Below, piece after piece: positions 23,500 to 56,864 of a stretch of 64,000 bases of DNA. The position numbers and the translations under genes are program-made. Position 1 is the first letter of the stretch, and each line of letters starts with the position of its first letter. The notes beneath the pieces were generated by a model, which worked only from the letters and a program-made list of their open reading frames with translations, made no database searches and was not told where the DNA came from. Source of the DNA: Alphaproteobacteria bacterium (GTDB lineage Bacteria > Pseudomonadota > Alphaproteobacteria > Bin95); NCBI GenBank assembly GCA_964291285.2, contig OZ219788.1, forward strand, positions 32,001-96,000, in the 5' to 3' direction.

Positions 23500-24217
23500 C
23501 CCAACCGTCACCCCCGCTACACCACCGCCTGCCCCCGCGCCCCCCAACCGTCACCCCCGCGAAGGCGGGGGGCCATCCCTGACCGTTCGCGTCCGCCGCG
23601 GCCGGTGGAGGGCAGGCTCAACCGCCGAGGCCGCCGGGAGAGTCCGGGATGGGTCCCGGCTCGGGGGCCGGGATGACGACATGGGCCCCGGCTCGGGGGC
23701 CGGGGCGACCCCCGCCTTCGCGGGCCGCTATCCCCGCCCCTCATCCTGAGTAGCGACCGCGCCAGCAGCCTGTCCTGAGCCTGTCGAAGGGGACGGCCGC
23801 TGCGGTTCGGGACGGTCCTTCGATACGCGCCGCTCCCGGCTGGCGCCGGAAGCGGCGCTACTCAGGATGAGGGGTGGGCAGAGCGACGATGCGGCCCCCA
23901 ACCGTCACCCCCGCGAAGGCGGGGGGCCATCCCTGACCGTTCGCGTCCGCCGCGGCCGGTGGAGGGCGGCTCAACCGCCGAGGCCGCCGGGAGGGTCCGG
24001 GTCCCGGCTCGGGGGCCGGGATGACGACATGGGCCCCGGCTCGGGGGCCGGGGCGACCCCCGCCTTCGCGGGCCGCTATCCCCGCCCCTCATCCTGAGTA
24101 GCGACCGCGCCAGCGGGCGCGTATCGAAGGACGGCGGCTGCGGTTCGGGACGGTCCTTCGATACGCGCCGCTCCCGGCTGGCGCCGGAAGCGGCGCTACT
24201 CAGGATGAGGGGCGGGC
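23500..24217. repeat. Mosaic array of palindromic repeats; two ~340-bp tandem units
   Basis: CGTCACCCCCGCGAAGGCGGGGGGCCA at 23549 and 23903; reverse CGTCATCCCGGCCCCCGAGCCGGGACCC; CCTCATCCTGAGTAGCG..TCGAAGG inverted doublets at 23737-23874 and 24085-24212. Confidence 0.9.
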
Positions 24218-24264
24218 ATGGTCCCTATGCGTCGCCCCCGTCGACAGGCGGGGGTCGGCAGGGC

Positions 24265-24561
24265 CTACGCGGCGACCGGCTGGAGCAGGGCGACGATGAG
24301 CGCGCCCTGCGCCGCCAGCAGGGCCGCCATGACGCCCACCATGCGCCAGGTCATGCGGGTCTCGAGCGCCGCGAGTTCCACCTTGAGGTCGGCGATATCC
24401 GCCTTGACGGCTGCAAGGTCCGCCTTCGTCGCCAGTTCCCCGCGGTCCGCCCCGGCGGCGGCGCGGGCGGTGGCGATGATGGCCTTCGCCTTCTCCGCGT
24501 CGAGGCCGGCGTCCTGAAGCGCCTCGGCGGCGGCGAGGGTGTCGAATGCGGCGCCCGTCAT
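24265..24561 (-). CDS. CCDC90/DUF1640-like coiled-coil protein with C-terminal TM helix
   Basis: FDTLAAAEALQDAG...ELATKADL...TWRMVGVMAALL. Confidence 0.8.
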   Translation of the reverse strand: MTGAAFDTLAAAEALQDAGLDAEKAKAIIATARAAAGADRGELATKADLAAVKADIADLKVELAALETRMTWRMVGVMAALLAAQGALIVALLQPVAA

Positions 24562-24705
24562 GGCGCGCAGGTTAGGCCGCCCGCCGCCCCGCCGTCAAGC
24601 GCGCCGGGGCCTGCCCCCAACCTGAGCAGCGCCGCTTCCGCTGCCTTCCGACCCCCCTCCTGCCGGGCGGGACGGGGATTTGCGGGCGCTTCCCACCCCT
24701 TGTAT

Positions 24706-25380
24706 CTCTGAGTAGCGCCAGCCGGGAGCGGCGCTGCTCAGGATGAGGGGTGGGCAGAGCGGCGGTGCCCCCCCAACCGTCACCCCCGCGAAGGCGGGGG
24801 GCCATCCCTGACTGTTTGCGTCCGCCGCAGCCGGTCGAGGCAGGGCCGGACCGCCGAAGCCGCCGGGAGGGTCCGGGGTCCCGGCTCGGGGGCCGGGATG
24901 ACGACATGGGCCCCGGCTCGGGGGCCGGGGCGACCCCCGCCTTCGCGGGGGCAGGCGGGCGGGGGCCGCACCGTCCGCCTTCGCGGGCCGCCATCCCCGC
25001 TACACCACCGCCTGCCCCCGCGCGCCCCAACCGTCACCCCCGCGAAGGCGGGGGGCCATCCCTGACTGTTTGCGCCGCCGCAGCCGGTCGAGGCAGGGCC
25101 GGGCCGCCGAGGCTGCCGGGAGAGTCCGGGATGGGCCCCGGCTCGGGGGCCGGGGCGACGAGCGGGGGCCGCACCGTCCGCCTGCACGGGCCGTCACCCC
25201 CGCGAAGGCGGGGGGCCATCCCTGACTGTTTGCGCCGCCGCAGCCGGTCGAGGCAGGGCCGGGCCACCGAGGCTGCCGGGAGAGTCCGGGTCCCGGCTCG
25301 GGGGCCGGGATGACGACATGGGCCCCGGCTCGGGGGCCGGGGCGACCCCCGCCTTCGCGGGGGCAGGCGGGCGGGGGCCG
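24706..25380. repeat. Second mosaic array of the same palindromic repeats
   Basis: CGTCACCCCCGCGAAGGCGGGGGGCCA at 24778, 25032 and 25192; GGGCCCCGGCTCGGGGGCCGGGGCGAC copies; partial CTCAGGATGAGGGG copy. Confidence 0.9.
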
Positions 25381-25514
25381 CGGGGGGATCGGCCGGGCGG
25401 GCCTTGCCGGGGCGGGGTTGCGAAAGCGTTTGTCTGCGCTTGAATCTGAAATATGGTAATTGTCCATGTTGAGAAAATGGATTTTCCGATGATTTGGCGT
25501 CAGGGGAGGGTTCC

Positions 25515-28412
25515 ATGGTTGGAGGCAGGCCGGGCATCGGGCCGCGGACCGGGATCGTTGCGGGCGCGACCCCGCGCGTCGAACGCGGTATAATTAGCGC
25601 CGAGCGCCGAGCGCCGAGCGCCGAGCGCCGAGCGCCGAGCGCCGAGCGCCGAGCGCCGAGCGCCGAGCGCCGAGCGCCGAGCGCCGAGCGCCGAGCGCCG
25701 AGCGCCGAGCGCCGAGCGCCGAGCGCCGAGCGCCGAGCGCCGAGCGCCGAGCGCCGAGCCACATCTCCGTCCCCCGCCGGTGCGCGGGGGCAGGCCAGCG
25801 GTAGCCGCAGCCTTCGGGAGTGTTTCCGCCGCCTAGCCGTCCCCTTCCTGCTCGCCCTGTCCGCGCTTGCCTTCGCGCCGGCGGCCGAGGCGCAGGATCG
25901 GCCGGCCACGCCCACCGGCTTCACGGCGACGCAGTCTGCCTCGGGCGTCGGCATCGAGCTCAGGTGGGACGCGGACACGGACCCGGTGGAACCCGGCGAA
26001 TCGATCACCGGCTTCAGGATCGACTGGCGGCCGTCTGTTGCGGGCAGCGACTGGGTCGCCAACCCCCCGACCGGGATGAAGACGATCAACAACGGGACCA
26101 TCGTCAATATCGCGATTACCGACACCCAGGACAGCCTGCAGCCCGATACCGAATACGATTTCCGCATCCGCTCCATGCGCTCCGGGAGCGCGCCAACAAA
26201 CAGTTGGTTCTCGGGCAAAGTCACGGAAAGGACGGCGAGCCGGGCGAGCGTGTCCATCGCGACCGACCCGTCGCCGCTGACCGAGGCGGACCTGGACGGA
26301 GCGCGGCTGACACTGGACCTTGTGGGAGTCGAGTACATCTCCTCCCTGTCGCCGGGCAGTTTCACCATGCCGGGGGTCCTCAGCGGCCTGTCCATCGCGT
26401 CGGTGAACCGCGTAAGCAACACCCGGGCCGTGCTGACGCTGGCCTTCAACGGCGACTTCGCCGGGGTCCAGCAGTTCCTGACGATACACGTCCCGCCCGG
26501 GTCCCACACAGGGACCTTCACTCTGTTGGCGGCCCCGGTCACGGTGACGCCGAGGCCGCCGCCGCCCGGCCCGGCCCCGGCGGCGCCGGCGGCGCGGGTC
26601 GTCACCGATCCGCCGCGGCTGACCGAGGACAATGCCGACGACGCGACCGTGACCCTGCGGCTGGCGGGCGCGACGTGGGAGGACCCGATTCCCACAAACG
26701 GCGTCACGGTCACCGGCCTGCCGGACGGCATGGAGGCAAGCGAGCCGGCGCGCGTGTCCGACAGCGAGGCGCGGATCACGCTCTCCTACACGCCCGAGGG
26801 CGCGGACGGGCTGGAGGGCGACGCCGTGCTGACGGTGACGGCCGCGGCCGCCTCGCACAGCGGCCCGGCGGCGCTGACCGGGACCGTGACGGTCCACGCC
26901 CGGAGCGCCCCGGCGGCGCTGGCGGCGACGCGCTGGCTGTCGCGGTTCGGGCGCACGGTGGCGGACCATGTGATGGCGGCGGTCGGCGCGCGGCTTTCGG
27001 AGCCGGCGGGACAGGACGACCGGCTCAGGCTGGCGGGGCGCTCCCTCTACTCCCCTGCCGCCTTGCTTAACCCCCCTCCCGCTCGGCGGGAGGGGTCGGG
27101 GGAGGGCCTCGCGGCGTGCGCGGCCGCTTGCGGGGCTTCGCCCGCCGCCGCGCTGGACGCGGCGAACGTTGCGAATGGCGGCGTTGGCGCCGCCGGCCTG
27201 GCGGCCGGCCCCCTCACCCGTCCTCTCCCCGCAGGCGGGGAGAGGGGAATTGCGGCGGCGCAGGCGCTCACGCCCCGCGACCTGCTGGCGGGGACCTCCT
27301 TCCGCGTCTCGGCGGCCGGGGGCGGCGGCGTGGCGAACGCCGGCTGGACCGCTTGGGGGCGGGTGGACCTGTCGCGCTTCGACGAGGACGAAGGCGGCCT
27401 CTCGCTCGACGGCGACACCATGACCGCCACGGTCGGCGCCGACATGCGGCGCGGGCGGCTGCTGGCCGGGGTCGCGGCCGCGCACAGCGCCGGCAGCGGC
27501 GAGTACCGGGACGTTGGCGGGGCGGCGGGCGACCTCGACGCCTCGCTCGCCTCGGTGCATCCCTATGTGCGCGTCGAGGCGGCGGGCGGGCTGTCCCTCT
27601 GGGGCGTGCTCGGCTGGGGCGGGGGCGACATGACGCTCGACCGCCGCGACGGCGACGATGAGAAGGCCGACCTCGAAATGACGATGGCGGGCGCGGGCGC
27701 GCGGGGTCCGCTGCCGGCGCCGTCTGCGGGCATGGCGCTGGCGTTGCGCGCGGAGGCGTTCGGCTCGCGGATCGAGGCCGACGGCGGCGGCGATGCGCTG
27801 AAGGGCGCGGAGGCCGAGGCGTGGCGGATGCGCCTTGCGCTGGAAGCCTCCTGGGACGAGACGGAGGCAGGCCTGCGCCCGTCTGCGGAACTCGGCCTGC
27901 GGCATGACGGCGGCGACGGGGAGACCGGGACCGGGGCGGAACTGGGCGGCGGCGTCGCCTGGGCCGGCCCGGACGGTCTGTCGGCCTCGCTCCGGGCGCG
28001 GGCGCTGCTGGACGGCGACGGGGTCTCCGAGTGGGGCGGCGGGGCGATGCTGGCCTATGCGCCCGGCGCGGACGGGCGGGGGCTGCGGCTCTCGCTCGCG
28101 CCGTCGGTGGGCGCGGCCGAGGGCGGCGTCGAGCGGCTCTGGCGCGCGGACGCGGCGGCGCTCGCAGGCGAACGGGACGCCCGGCCGCGCCTCGACGCCA
28201 AGGCGGGCTACGGCATCGCGGTGATGGGCGGGCGCGGCCTGCTGACCCCCCATGCGGGCCTCTCCCTCTCGGACGCCGACGACCGCCGCACCCGCCTGGG
28301 CGCGCGCCTCACGCTCGCCCCCGGCGCGGACCTCGCCCTCGCCGCCGAACGCACCGACCGCACCGCCGGCCCCGAACACGCGCTCACCCTGGGCGCCCGC
28401 CTGCGCTGGTAG
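25515..28412 (+). CDS. Autotransporter-like surface protein (FN3/Ig-like passenger, C-terminal beta-barrel)
   Basis: GGGGAGG RBS; signal peptide LAVPFLLALSALAFAPAAEA; FN3-like LRWD..FRIDWR..LQPDTEYDFRIR; WLSRFGRTVA helix; ends LGARLRW. Confidence 0.85.
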   Translation: MVGGRPGIGPRTGIVAGATPRVERGIISAERRAPSAERRAPSAERRAPSAERRAPSAERRAPSAERRAPSAERRAPSAERRATSPSPAGARGQASGSRSLRECFRRLAVPFLLALSALAFAPAAEAQDRPATPTGFTATQSASGVGIELRWDADTDPVEPGESITGFRIDWRPSVAGSDWVANPPTGMKTINNGTIVNIAITDTQDSLQPDTEYDFRIRSMRSGSAPTNSWFSGKVTERTASRASVSIATDPSPLTEADLDGARLTLDLVGVEYISSLSPGSFTMPGVLSGLSIASVNRVSNTRAVLTLAFNGDFAGVQQFLTIHVPPGSHTGTFTLLAAPVTVTPRPPPPGPAPAAPAARVVTDPPRLTEDNADDATVTLRLAGATWEDPIPTNGVTVTGLPDGMEASEPARVSDSEARITLSYTPEGADGLEGDAVLTVTAAAASHSGPAALTGTVTVHARSAPAALAATRWLSRFGRTVADHVMAAVGARLSEPAGQDDRLRLAGRSLYSPAALLNPPPARREGSGEGLAACAAACGASPAAALDAANVANGGVGAAGLAAGPLTRPLPAGGERGIAAAQALTPRDLLAGTSFRVSAAGGGGVANAGWTAWGRVDLSRFDEDEGGLSLDGDTMTATVGADMRRGRLLAGVAAAHSAGSGEYRDVGGAAGDLDASLASVHPYVRVEAAGGLSLWGVLGWGGGDMTLDRRDGDDEKADLEMTMAGAGARGPLPAPSAGMALALRAEAFGSRIEADGGGDALKGAEAEAWRMRLALEASWDETEAGLRPSAELGLRHDGGDGETGTGAELGGGVAWAGPDGLSASLRARALLDGDGVSEWGGGAMLAYAPGADGRGLRLSLAPSVGAAEGGVERLWRADAAALAGERDARPRLDAKAGYGIAVMGGRGLLTPHAGLSLSDADDRRTRLGARLTLAPGADLALAAERTDRTAGPEHALTLGARLRW
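25596..25756 (+). repeat. Perfect heptamer tandem repeat (AGCGCCG)x23 in the 5' coding region
   Basis: 161 bp counted directly; translates as SAERRAP repeats. Confidence 0.95.
27071..27247. repeat. In-frame palindromic doublet inside the autotransporter CDS
   Basis: CCCCCTCCCGCTCGGCGGGAGGGGTCGGGGGAGGG ... CCCTCACCCGTCCTCTCCCCGCAGGCGGGGAGAGGGG. Confidence 0.65.
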
Positions 28413-28413
28413 G

Positions 28414-28654
28414 GTCCTTCGATACGCACCGCTTCCGGCTGACGCCGGAAGCGGCGCTACTCAGGATGAGGGGTGGGGCAGGCCCCTCTTCGCCGCCCCG
28501 GACACTCGCGGGATGACAGTTGGGGAGGCCGCACCGCCGCTCTCCTCTTCCCTCATCCTGAGTAGCGCCGGCCTTCGCCCCGCGAAGGCCGGCGCGTATC
28601 GAAGGACGGTCCCGAGCCCGTCGAAGGGGCCTGCCCTGAGCCCGTCGAAGGGGG
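28414..28654. repeat. Palindromic repeats left of the GIY-YIG gene
   Basis: Reverse copy 28414-28473, forward copy 28550-28607, then two CC(C/T)GAGCCCGTCGAAGGG units. Confidence 0.9.
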
Positions 28655-28690
28655 CGGCGGCTTCCCGTGTTCCCGTGCTATACCGCCGCC

Positions 28691-29026
28691 ATGCCGCACG
28701 AACCGCCGACCCGTGTTTACATGCTGCGCTGCGCGGACGGCAGCTTCTACACGGGGGTGACGCGGCGGCCCCTGGAGGAGCGCGTGCGCGAGCATGAGAG
28801 CGGGGCGGTCGCGGGCTATACGCAGAGCCGCCGTCCGGTGGAGCTGGTGTGGTCCGAGGAGTTCCAGTGGGCGGCCGATGCGATTGCGATGGAGCGGCGG
28901 GTCAAGGGCTGGTCGCGGCGCAAGAAGCGCGCCCTGGCGGCGGGGGACTGGGAGGCGCTGAAACGGGCCGCGAAGAAGGACTTCGGGGCGCGACCGTCCC
29001 CCGGCAGCCGCCCCGGCCCCGAATAA
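28691..29026 (+). CDS. Stand-alone GIY-YIG nuclease (UPF0213-like)
   Basis: VYMLRCADGSFYTGVT..LEERVREH..GYT..RRPVELVWSE..AIAMERRVKGWSRRKK. Confidence 0.92.
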   Translation: MPHEPPTRVYMLRCADGSFYTGVTRRPLEERVREHESGAVAGYTQSRRPVELVWSEEFQWAADAIAMERRVKGWSRRKKRALAAGDWEALKRAAKKDFGARPSPGSRPGPE

Positions 29027-29039
29027 CGCCGCCGCGCCA

Positions 29040-29216
29040 GTCCTTCGATACGCGCCGCTTCCGGCTGGCGCCGGAAGCGGCGCTACTCAGGATGAGGGGT
29101 TGGGGGACGCCGGCGCGGCCTATCCCCGTTCGGGACAGCCGTTCCCTCTTCCCCTCACCCTGAGTAGCGGCGTCAGTCGCGTATCGAAGGGGCCTGCCCC
29201 GAGCCCGTCGAAGGGG
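29040..29216. repeat. Palindromic repeats right of the GIY-YIG gene
   Basis: Reverse copy 29040-29099, forward copy 29151-29191, then CCCGAGCCCGTCGAAGGG. Confidence 0.9.
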
Positions 29217-29622
29217 ACGGCGGCCTCCCTCCCCTGCCCCTACCGCTCCGTCCACCGCCTGCGCCGGCGGCCGGCGAGGCCGGCGAGGCGGCGAGCGCGT
29301 CGCGCAGGCCGTACATGGAAATCGCGGGCTGCGCCGCCAGGATGCGGAGGATGCGCTCGCGCTGCGGCTCGATCCGCGAGGCGCGGCCACCCATCGGGTC
29401 GCGCCGCACATGGCCGCGCTCGCGAAAGCGCTTCACCCAGCTGTCGACGCTGTCCCTCGACACGCCGAACCGCCGGGCCGCGGCGGAGACGGCCATGCCC
29501 TCCTCCACCACCGCCAGGACCGCCCTGCTCCGCACCTCCTCGCTGACCGGGCGGCCCCGCACCCCCGGCCGCGGCAGCCCGCCCGCCGGGCCGCCCTTGC
29601 AACTTCGGCTCGATTCCGTCAT
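29173..29622 (-). pseudogene. IS630-like transposase N-terminal HTH ORF, lacking the DDE domain
   Basis: SEEVRSRAVLAVVEEGMAVSAAARRFGVSRDSVDSWVKRFRERG..PMGG; strong GGAGGAGG RBS. Confidence 0.65.

Positions 29623-56788: not shown

Positions 56789-56864
<76 letters not shown>

Follow-up and report, generated by a model that had tools for sequence, protein, structure and literature searches.

The 64,000-nucleotide stretch analyzed here (the window, G000:C4:32001-96000) comes from an alphaproteobacterial genome of 6.1 Mb in five contigs with a completeness of 100% (G000, the source genome). At 28691-29026 on the forward strand it carries a single-domain GIY-YIG nuclease gene of 336 bases (PF01541, E 1.2e-15) that is enclosed, as the initial annotation had described, by a convergent pair of hairpin-forming repeat units—28552-28607 on the forward strand and 29040-29096 on the reverse strand—with further units outside both ends. 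The same unit recurs nearby, and throughout the genome, as gene-less pairs. That gene and repeat form a specific pair rather than being chance neighbors is well supported by the comparison of homologous loci.

The length of 111 amino acids (aa) rests on an assumed start at the ATG at 28691; the mechanical open reading frame (ORF) begins at a GTG at 28667 (119 aa), and an 84%-identical orthologue begins MPHEPPT at the corresponding ATG. The gene is intact, as first annotated, and keeps its catalytic residues: PF01541 spans residues 9-79 with no other domain matched, and Y10, Y20, G22, R31, H35, and E68 correspond to invariant columns in an alignment of 13 small GIY-YIG proteins, E. coli YhbQ among them. 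It is the only small GIY-YIG gene in the source genome, where PF01541 otherwise matched a 661-aa frame of UvrC size and a tblastn search with the nuclease found no second copy and no pseudogene relic. An AlphaFold model (pLDDT 76.7) comprises one GIY-YIG domain and C-terminal helices, and the predicted fold lies nearest to 1zg2 and 1ywl (both UPF0213) and to the nuclease domain of the structure-specific endonuclease Slx1. The best sequence matches among solved structures were likewise 1zg2 (E 1.9e-12) and 1ywl (E 6.7e-11), whereas a typical protein flanked by SRM elements—the repeats of the published Ssn nucleases (Chenal et al., Nat Commun 2025, PMC11893778)—matched 1zg2 at E 0.0068 only. Bit scores were 106-166 within the clade of the nuclease, 35-56 to SRM-flanked relatives, and 33-50 to UPF0213 (YhbQ and a relative; 45 for the nuclease itself against YhbQ), and UPF0213 proteins scored 32-47 bits against the typical group. 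Given 35-56 versus 33-50 bits, the nuclease clade, the Ssn-type SRM-flanked proteins, and UPF0213 are about equidistant, and by these scores the nuclease belongs to a separate protein clade of mini GIY-YIG enzymes. NCBIfam yielded no model for the protein.

The repeat unit and its genomic population

The unit has the consensus (C)CCTCAT-CCTGAG-TAGC-[variable GC hairpin]-GCGTA-TCGAAGG-AC. Its left arm (CTCATCCTGAGTAGCG, up to two mismatches allowed) matched the window nine times, at 23740+, 23856-, 24088+, 24194-, 24732-, 28455-, 28552+, 29081-, and 29154+ (chance expectation 0.04; 0 of 100 shuffles attained nine), and its right arm (CGCGTATCGAAGGAC) seven times, at 23815-, 24118+, 24153-, 28414-, 28593+, 29040-, and 29178+ (expected 0.27). 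All copies are confined to 23.7-29.2 kb, in agreement with the roughly nine occurrences first noticed there, and complete units number seven: 23815-23871(-), 24088-24132(+), 24153-24209(-), 28414-28470(-), 28552-28607(+), 29040-29096(-), and 29154-29192(+, degenerate).

Around the nuclease gene the order is a reverse unit, a forward unit, two short units, the gene, a reverse unit, and a degenerate forward unit. The outer left unit (GCGCCGCTTCCGGC..GCCGGAAGCGGTGC, 28414-28470, reverse) carries a hairpin of class C and folds as DNA at -21.0 kcal/mol (z -5.8), and the left bracketing unit, on the gene's own strand, carries a class B hairpin with a 14-bp perfect stem (-23.8 kcal/mol, z -5.35). Between the latter and the gene, two tandem short units without a hairpin (CCCGAGCCCGTCGAAGGGG and CCCTGAGCCCGTCGAAGGGGG, 28610-28654, forward) were read from the sequence; this short form also recurs genome-wide and nested within long units. 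On the far side of the gene, the convergent right bracketing unit is again of class C (-24.3 kcal/mol, z -5.7), and the outer right unit, recognized by arm matches (29154-29216, forward, class D), is degenerate (CTCACCC.., with a right arm ..GAAGGGG), is followed by a short unit at 29196-29216, and folds no better than shuffles (29148-29198, z -0.4).

Two gene-less convergent pairs had been reported upstream, of which one is intact and the other damaged. The pair at 24088-24209, found by arm matches, consists of a forward class A unit, a 20-bp spacer, and a reverse class C unit, and the stretch 24082-24215, folded as single-stranded DNA (ssDNA), gives one long hairpin at -66.4 kcal/mol (z -9.9). 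The damaged pair, at 23740-23871, was identified by arm matches and sequence reading; its left member holds a nested short unit and is without its right arm. Sequence reading also revealed a rearranged fragment at 24700-24752 (reverse; arm match at 24732), with one hairpin between two left-arm-like ends.

At gathering thresholds, the sole Rfam match in the window was a tRNA at 56789, and E-value scans of 23600-29300 and of 1500-2250 of a second locus of the source genome (L140, G000:C3:2145600-2149700) gave only sub-threshold miRNA, snoRNA, and CRISPR-DR noise. A hammerhead-like reading of CUGAGUA...GAA was dropped by eye for a misfit in the core, and a promoter and terminator scan of 28380-29260 found nothing.

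The genome-wide count proposed in the initial annotation gave 78 left arms (at most two mismatches) and, by script search, 64 complete units, which on reading fell into seven hairpin classes of 20, 11, 7, 13, 6, 4, and 3 copies. Single units folded as DNA with z-scores of -5.4 to -5.8. Thirty of the units pair into 15 convergent doublets with spacers of at most 60 bp, usually about 21 bp; because the spacer is itself conserved and is seen in both orientations, the doublet is one element of 120-135 bp. The three-copy class is a 69-nt composite in which a short unit (CCTGAGCC.GTCGAAGGGG) is nested in the class A apical hairpin, found at G000:C2:43338, C3:1054891, and C5:147960 and also in three relatives (G002, G006, and G010). 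This recurrence at multiple loci and in more than one species means that composite units are copied whole.

The unit comes in several subtypes: CCTGAG-TAGC[hairpin]GCGTA-TCGAAGG, CCTGAG-GTGC[hairpin]GC-CTCGAAGG, CCTGAG-GAGC[hairpin]GCGTC-TCGAAGG, a CGAAGC form, and the hairpin-less CCTGAGCTTGTCGAAGG form. In the 212 units counted beside genes, the six positions preceding CCTGAG were predominantly C (173), G/C/T (88/75/25), T (182), C (184), A (180), and T (148), and the three after TCGAAGG were A (131), T (100), and G (152); these counts correspond to a CGTC/CCTC tag and a stem starting with AT. Units measure 38-69 nt and consist of a bulged basal stem surmounted by an apical hairpin of 10-30 nt, whose sequence and length are free between copies and genomes while its pairing is kept. 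The basal stem co-varies: among 231 distinct units from 76 loci, counted on units anchored at TCA (a looser scan was dropped, about half of its 415 candidates lying in the wrong register), 770 of the 1155 cells of the five-pair stem were Watson-Crick versus a permuted mean of 620 (maximum 651), slid registers reached 18-29%, and alternative pairs occur at three positions (TA 170/CG 16, CG 152/GC 15, and TA 111/CG 34/GC 8).

Association of gene and repeat among homologues

Close homologues of the nuclease are few among the 61 related genomes sampled—one of 84% identity in G016, a broken copy in G010, and copies of 46-57% identity in a sister genus—and all of them are unit-flanked. The loci of G035 and G040, of G025, and of the second copy in G021 carry variant units with compensating changes in the arms, from ATCCT/AGGAT to ATCTC/GAGAT, ATGCT/AGCAT, or CACCTT/AAGGTG. 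For a wider sample we scanned one genome per species and retained 80 loci encoding proteins 50-79% identical, from Bradyrhizobium, Methylorubrum, Rhodopseudomonas, Pelagibius, Sphingomonas, Kaistia, Rhizobacter, Nocardioides, and many uncultured Alpha-, Beta-, and Gammaproteobacteria. A generalized unit (C[CT][CTG]GAG-N8-70-[TC]CGA[AG][AG]G), sought from 250 bp upstream to 300 bp downstream of the gene, was present at 71 of the 80 loci (both flanks in 50, a single flank in 21), leaving 9 without one, and at 70 when units had to lie wholly inside the zone. Unit density was 3.79/kb near the gene versus 0.23/kb at 600 bp or more, a 16-fold local enrichment. The proposal that homologues would be flanked by cognate repeats thus held in this sample. 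The distant small GIY-YIG loci of the relatives (30-43% identity) had a unit in 0 of 17 cases, and none of 10 loci of other small GIY-YIG genes in G082, G286, and G252 was unit-flanked.

These figures bear directly on the alternative that there is no functional link and the units are REP-like (repetitive extragenic palindromic) terminators or mRNA stabilizers, with the nuclease gene merely lying in a repeat-rich gap. Units do exist without the gene, and the stretch of about 6 kb between moaA and a helix-turn-helix (HTH) gene in which the cassette sits combines three or more repeat families in a mosaic that is absent in the relatives G011 and G010. Such a gap would not, however, account for units at 71 of 80 homologue loci, for the local enrichment, for the 0 of 17 distant loci, or for paralogue-specific subtypes coexisting in one genome (G021, below); contradicted already by these results, this alternative appears extremely unlikely.

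The further proposal that repeat sequence follows nuclease phylogeny was also upheld. On a plain neighbor-joining tree of 104 proteins, built without support values and on which relatives share labels by descent, the unit clade stands apart from the typical clade, and subtype labels change 22 times versus a shuffled mean of 56.7 (minimum 48 in 1000 shuffles). G021 encodes two paralogues, each flanked by its own subtype. The TAG subtype, at one of them, has 17 exact copies across the genome; ATCTCGAGTG..GTATCGAGAG, at the other, occurs 11 times in G021 and once in G035 and was not found in G000, G016, or G019.

The published SRM pattern (HGTCWYN(0-2)YYVSBRHN(0-5)WNVSBRGN(0-2)RNCYNB) matched at 5 of 16 typical loci (both sides in 3), versus 3 of 91 unit-clade loci, none on both. 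In the window it had no match within 500 bp of the nuclease gene and five matches at 23549-25219. The latter are five identical forward copies, at 23549, 23903, 24778, 25032, and 25192, of a second, classical SRM/CGTC-type hairpin (CGTCACCCCCGCGAAGGCGGGGGGCCAT), which does not flank the nuclease gene and has about 12 copies genome-wide; together with many CCCGGCTCGGGGGCCGGG repeats (34 genome-wide), they make up a BIME-like mosaic at 23549-25219. Because the source genome has no typical Ssn-type gene, this second family is an orphan there.

A separate observation concerns the reading frames of some homologues. At eight betaproteobacterial loci (L065, L098, L099, L102, L103, L111, L120, and L121) the nuclease frame runs free of stops through short-unit repeats, which translate as ..LRQAQPER..VRPEPVEG.., into a MeaB/ArgK-like GTPase gene, and at two sphingomonad loci (L068 and L091) it continues into a TrmJ-like methyltransferase gene. 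These run-on frames may reflect conserved synteny, or possibly read-through fusions.

Proposed mechanism, repeat turnover, and competing explanations

The explanation that we favor, and regard as moderately likely on this comparative evidence, is a cognate nuclease-site pairing, in which the 111-aa protein would be a stand-alone GIY-YIG endonuclease with the folded repeat unit as its cognate site, and the pair would stand beside the published Ssn/NTS pairs as a sister system. The recognition base of the unit would be constant—a C(G/C)TCAT tag and the basal stem ATCCT/AGGAT, with a conserved 5'-GA-3' bulge and a GAG/CTC step—and the GC-rich apical hairpin atop it free to vary. SsnA of N. meningitidis is a 94-aa single-domain GIY-YIG protein (cd10448) that binds the NTS hairpin and cuts beside it on ssDNA only, not on double-stranded DNA, RNA, or the reverse strand (PMC11893778). 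By this analogy, the enzyme would most likely bind its unit in ssDNA, as in replication, repair, conjugation, or transformation intermediates, and nick the tag-bearing strand beside the folded unit; we infer that the enzyme binds and cuts the unit, on which strand and where it would do so, and above all any part that it might play in spreading the units or its own cassette. Because the gene lies between two inverted units, the cassette of about 550 bp would have its own sites at both ends, and the doublets of 120-135 bp (unit, spacer of about 21 bp, inverted unit) would be gene-less counterparts of the same architecture.

The positions of the gene are non-syntenic between species: the nuclease genes of the source genome and G016 share 91.6% nucleotide identity over 320 bases, and outside the gene and its units nothing aligns. 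In G011 and G010, moaA directly adjoins the HTH-ADH genes; in the source genome, they are separated by some 6 kb that hold repeats, an fn3/autotransporter-like gene, and the nuclease cassette. Doublets, too, are present or absent at orthologous sites in different species, the doublet stretch L141:1753-2160 being replaced by 6-14 bases in G006, G016, and G010 and that at L140:1946-2155 by 6 bases in G002. The comparison of empty and filled sites in relatives that the initial annotation proposed thus yielded presence and absence of doublet stretches, though not a clean insertion site. One apparent joint from 28609 to 29040 in contigs of public sequencing runs was set aside, as it carries 19 other letters and corresponds to a paralogous empty doublet, with no excision; among the public runs holding this stretch, no RNA run is listed and three hold short Logan contigs only.

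Several further features deserve mention in their own right. The fn3-containing, autotransporter-like ORF of 972 aa (25494-28412), which G011 and G010 lack between moaA and the HTH gene, has about 24 tandem GCGCCGA heptamers at its 5' end (25594-25764). On the other side of the cassette, a small HTH ORF at 29173-29622 (reverse; core 29287-29560) resembles the N-terminal DNA-binding part of IS481/IS630 transposases, without the DDE domain; the copy in the window is truncated at its 3' end, and an intact 150-aa orthologue in G007 matches NF033577 and NF033545 at about 1e-16, below the cut-off. This family has about 30 diverged copies in the source genome (70-82% nucleotide identity) and dozens per genome across the genus, and 11 of the copies in the source genome have a unit at a distance of 136-351 bp, most of them turning the same (C-terminal) end towards it. 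At L140, a non-coding-looking repeat of about 280 bp (1647-1945) is preceded by a promoter-like site, TTGACA-N17-CAATAT, and directly followed by a unit doublet. Five relatives each have upwards of 40 copies at 72-85% identity, Rfam gave no match, and the repeat may represent a family of multi-copy small RNAs.

The geometry of filled and empty doublets invites a homing-type explanation, in which the units or doublets are the landing site of a selfish gene rather than its product: empty doublets would be cut, and the gene with its flanks copied in by repair. The gene does occupy the position of the doublet spacer, one empty doublet (G000:C3:2147581-2147714) combines classes B and C, the same as the brackets of the nuclease gene, and the non-synteny of the gene fits. 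Yet the source genome has one filled site versus 15 empty doublets, with no second copy or relic, the protein has no extra DNA-binding domain of the kind found in known GIY-YIG homing enzymes, and the dispersal of the units themselves would be left unexplained; we consider homing very unlikely.

To relate repeat abundance to the nuclease, we surveyed 301 alphaproteobacterial genomes, one to three per family, using the unit pattern TCATCCTGAG-N8-38-TCGAAGG. Units were found in 50 genomes, with up to 225 copies, and a backwards control gave 0 throughout. The nuclease was called in 28 genomes at E 1e-12 or better, with no more than 15 first-look candidates scored in each genome, so that some genes may be missed. 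In our own tally from the two separate result tables, it was present in 12 of the 20 genomes with at least 10 units, in 16 of the 281 with fewer than 10, and in 7 of the 251 without units; two unit-positive, nuclease-negative genomes, G072 (22 units) and G246 (4), are unpublished, and without them the first fraction becomes 12 of 19.

That a RAYT or another transposase elsewhere mobilizes the units, with the GTAG 5' of the apical hairpin as a RAYT tag, is barely credible. The TAGC subtype does read ..GA-GTAG-C[hairpin], like the GTAG-tagged REPs mentioned by Di Nocera, De Gregorio and Rocco (2013, PMC3733652), and Y1 genes are present in G171, G252, and G286; none of these eight Y1 loci is unit-flanked, however, and GTAG stands beside the palindrome in the TAGC subtype only, the sister subtypes carrying GGTG or GGAG in its place. 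PF01797 (Y1 transposase, RAYT family) had no match in the window, as first noted, nor anywhere in the source genome, and none in the five unit-bearing relatives G016, G010, G021, G002, and G011, which largely refutes this alternative for the source genome. The three findings that the initial annotation had named as fatal to its idea—syntenic homologues free of repeats, repeat abundance unrelated to the nuclease, and a repeat-flanked RAYT elsewhere—all failed to appear.

More weight attaches to a domesticated ssDNA "restriction" or recombination modulator, which would cut units in incoming or exposed ssDNA, as was proposed for SsnA and NTS in Neisseria transformation, and thereby influence recombination or the transfer of genes; the units themselves would multiply by a different route, such as recombination, replication slippage, or some other enzyme. 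Among possible functions, it alone has been linked by experiment to the related family (PMC11893778), and it is compatible with a nuclease gene that is single-copy in the source genome, with units that persist without the nuclease in several genomes, and with their gathering between convergent genes like REP/BIME elements. It would leave unexplained the regular bracketing of the gene by inverted units across genera, the unrelated cassette loci in the source genome and G016, and the copying of identical composite units to new loci, and we judge it rather unlikely.

Returning to the favored pairing, and to the stronger proposition that the nuclease also spreads its units, a number of observations weigh against one or the other. 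Eight of the 20 unit-rich genomes have no detected nuclease, so the nuclease is unnecessary for units to persist. G011, complete in a single contig, has 12 exact units and no clade nuclease, G002 has 17 with none detected, and in G154, G171, and G252 (44, 20, and 52 units), where all candidates were scored, PF01541 matched only UvrC-sized proteins and one 133-aa frame. Conversely, the exact pattern detected no unit in 7 of the 28 genomes with the nuclease. The agreement between subtype and clade may owe something to common descent of host, gene, and repeats, a confound that the paralogue pair of G021, as a within-genome control, avoids. For the TAGC subtype, the basal stem is absent from the thermodynamic fold. 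The filled/empty alignments at L140 and L141 showed no target-site duplication and no clean insertion boundary, and their differences are mosaic blocks of 200-400 bp rather than a lone doublet; given such blocks without clear target duplication, turnover is evident and a defined insertion event is not. The spacer of about 21 bp in the empty doublets is not recognizably split by the nuclease gene, and with one gene copy and no relic, the cassette is not multiplying in the source genome.

The REPtron-like system first envisaged for this locus therefore stands in part—a specific nuclease-repeat pair in REP/RAYT-like geometry—and is weakened as to spreading by the unit-rich genomes that lack the nuclease; the use of the hairpins as guides, also envisaged at first, gained no support. 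In those genomes the repeats outlive the enzyme, and they are equally useful for that reason, as evidence of repeats surviving it. That the nuclease drives the spread of units is doubtful, and that the cassette is a minimal autonomous mobile element, whose sole protein, a nuclease of about 100 aa, moves itself and the gene-less doublets via single-stranded hairpin intermediates, is unlikely. To our knowledge, no transposition chemistry is known for GIY-YIG enzymes, and were the mobile-element reading true, GIY-YIG would be a new transposase-like class, the abundant CCTGAG...TCGAAGG repeats of alpha- and betaproteobacterial genomes would have their long-missing partner in this clade, and, as G021 suggests, a single cell could harbor more than one orthogonal nuclease-site pair.

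If the pairing is functional, the Ssn principle of a tiny nuclease reading a folded ssDNA site would extend to a second mini GIY-YIG branch, with a modular site made of a fixed basal recognition element and a freely variable apical hairpin. A candidate partner enzyme would then be named for a very common proteobacterial repeat, natural orthogonal nuclease-site pairs would be available for ssDNA tools, and the question that the 2025 article raised but did not settle, whether such nucleases only cut repeats or also spread them, would become sharper (PMC11893778).

Comparison with known systems

The arrangement has features in common with several described systems. It shares with REP/REPIN-RAYT systems a single-copy gene bracketed by inverted short palindromic repeats, gene-less inverted doublets that fold into long hairpins (15 in the source genome), and repeat populations of tens to hundreds; unlike them, its enzyme is GIY-YIG rather than HUH/Y1, and a repeat-flanked HUH/Y1 gene was not found (PF01797, 0 matches in the source genome). 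With UPF0213 (E. coli YhbQ; B. halodurans BH0048, 1zg2; E. faecalis EF2693, 1ywl), the nuclease shares size, catalytic residues, and the nearest fold, although the sequence score to YhbQ is only 33-50 bits, and we know of no repeat association for UPF0213. It differs from GIY-YIG homing endonucleases in that no separate DNA-binding domain is joined to the nuclease domain.

CGTC-tagged REPs begin with a CGTC/TGTC/CCTC tag, have a stem from AT and a short unpaired tail, occur mostly in Alphaproteobacteria, form head-to-head dimers, and have no dedicated transposase (PMC3733652). The unit described here shares these features, the terminal tag and the AT of the stem predominating among the 212 units, but its stem is bulged and its "loop" is a second hairpin, unlike the families described there, which by their textual description have 8-9-bp stems and 4-5-nt loops.

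Literature searches on GIY-YIG together with REPIN/RAYT, repetitive extragenic palindromic, or miniature inverted/hairpin elements found nothing relevant; those on YhbQ/UPF0213/COG2827 turned up just one survey of repair in Caulobacter, which mentions three small COG2827 genes, and those on the unit motifs GTCGAAGG and CCTGAGC only unrelated primer matches. No paper was found that describes the nuclease clade or the CCTGAG...TCGAAGG unit.

The closest relative in principle is the Ssn system. According to the article, an SRM element was present at 71% of Ssn homologue loci and on both sides at 42%, a homologue was present in 81% of genomes with more than 200 SRMs, and the authors liken NTS-ssnA-NTS to insertion sequences, IS200/IS605, and REP/BIME (PMC11893778). 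Its main text does not contain TCGAAGG, CCTGAG, Bradyrhizobium, or Methylobacterium, and Supplementary Data 4 gives Bradyrhizobium, Azospirillum, and others by SRM count only. The published criteria for the family include cd10448 as top CDD match, or a BLASTP match to SsnA of N. meningitidis at E < 1e-10 with 75% cover. Like Ssn, the system described here has a single-domain GIY-YIG protein of about 100 aa (111 aa, within 94-150 aa), an oriented hairpin repeat that lies on both sides of the gene and is dispersed genome-wide, a repeat that starts with a CGTC-like tag, and a gene whose presence imperfectly tracks repeat number. Unlike Ssn, its protein appears to fall in a separate clade (35-56 bits to SRM-flanked relatives versus 106-166 within the clade), its flanking repeat is missed by the published SRM pattern (0 of 91 clade loci on both sides), and its site has two parts, a conserved bulged basal stem and a variable apical hairpin of 10-30 nt. 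The principle of a nuclease with its own hairpin repeat was thus already published in 2025 (PMC11893778); what differs here, as judged from sequence comparison, is a separate protein clade together with a two-part repeat outside the published SRM pattern.

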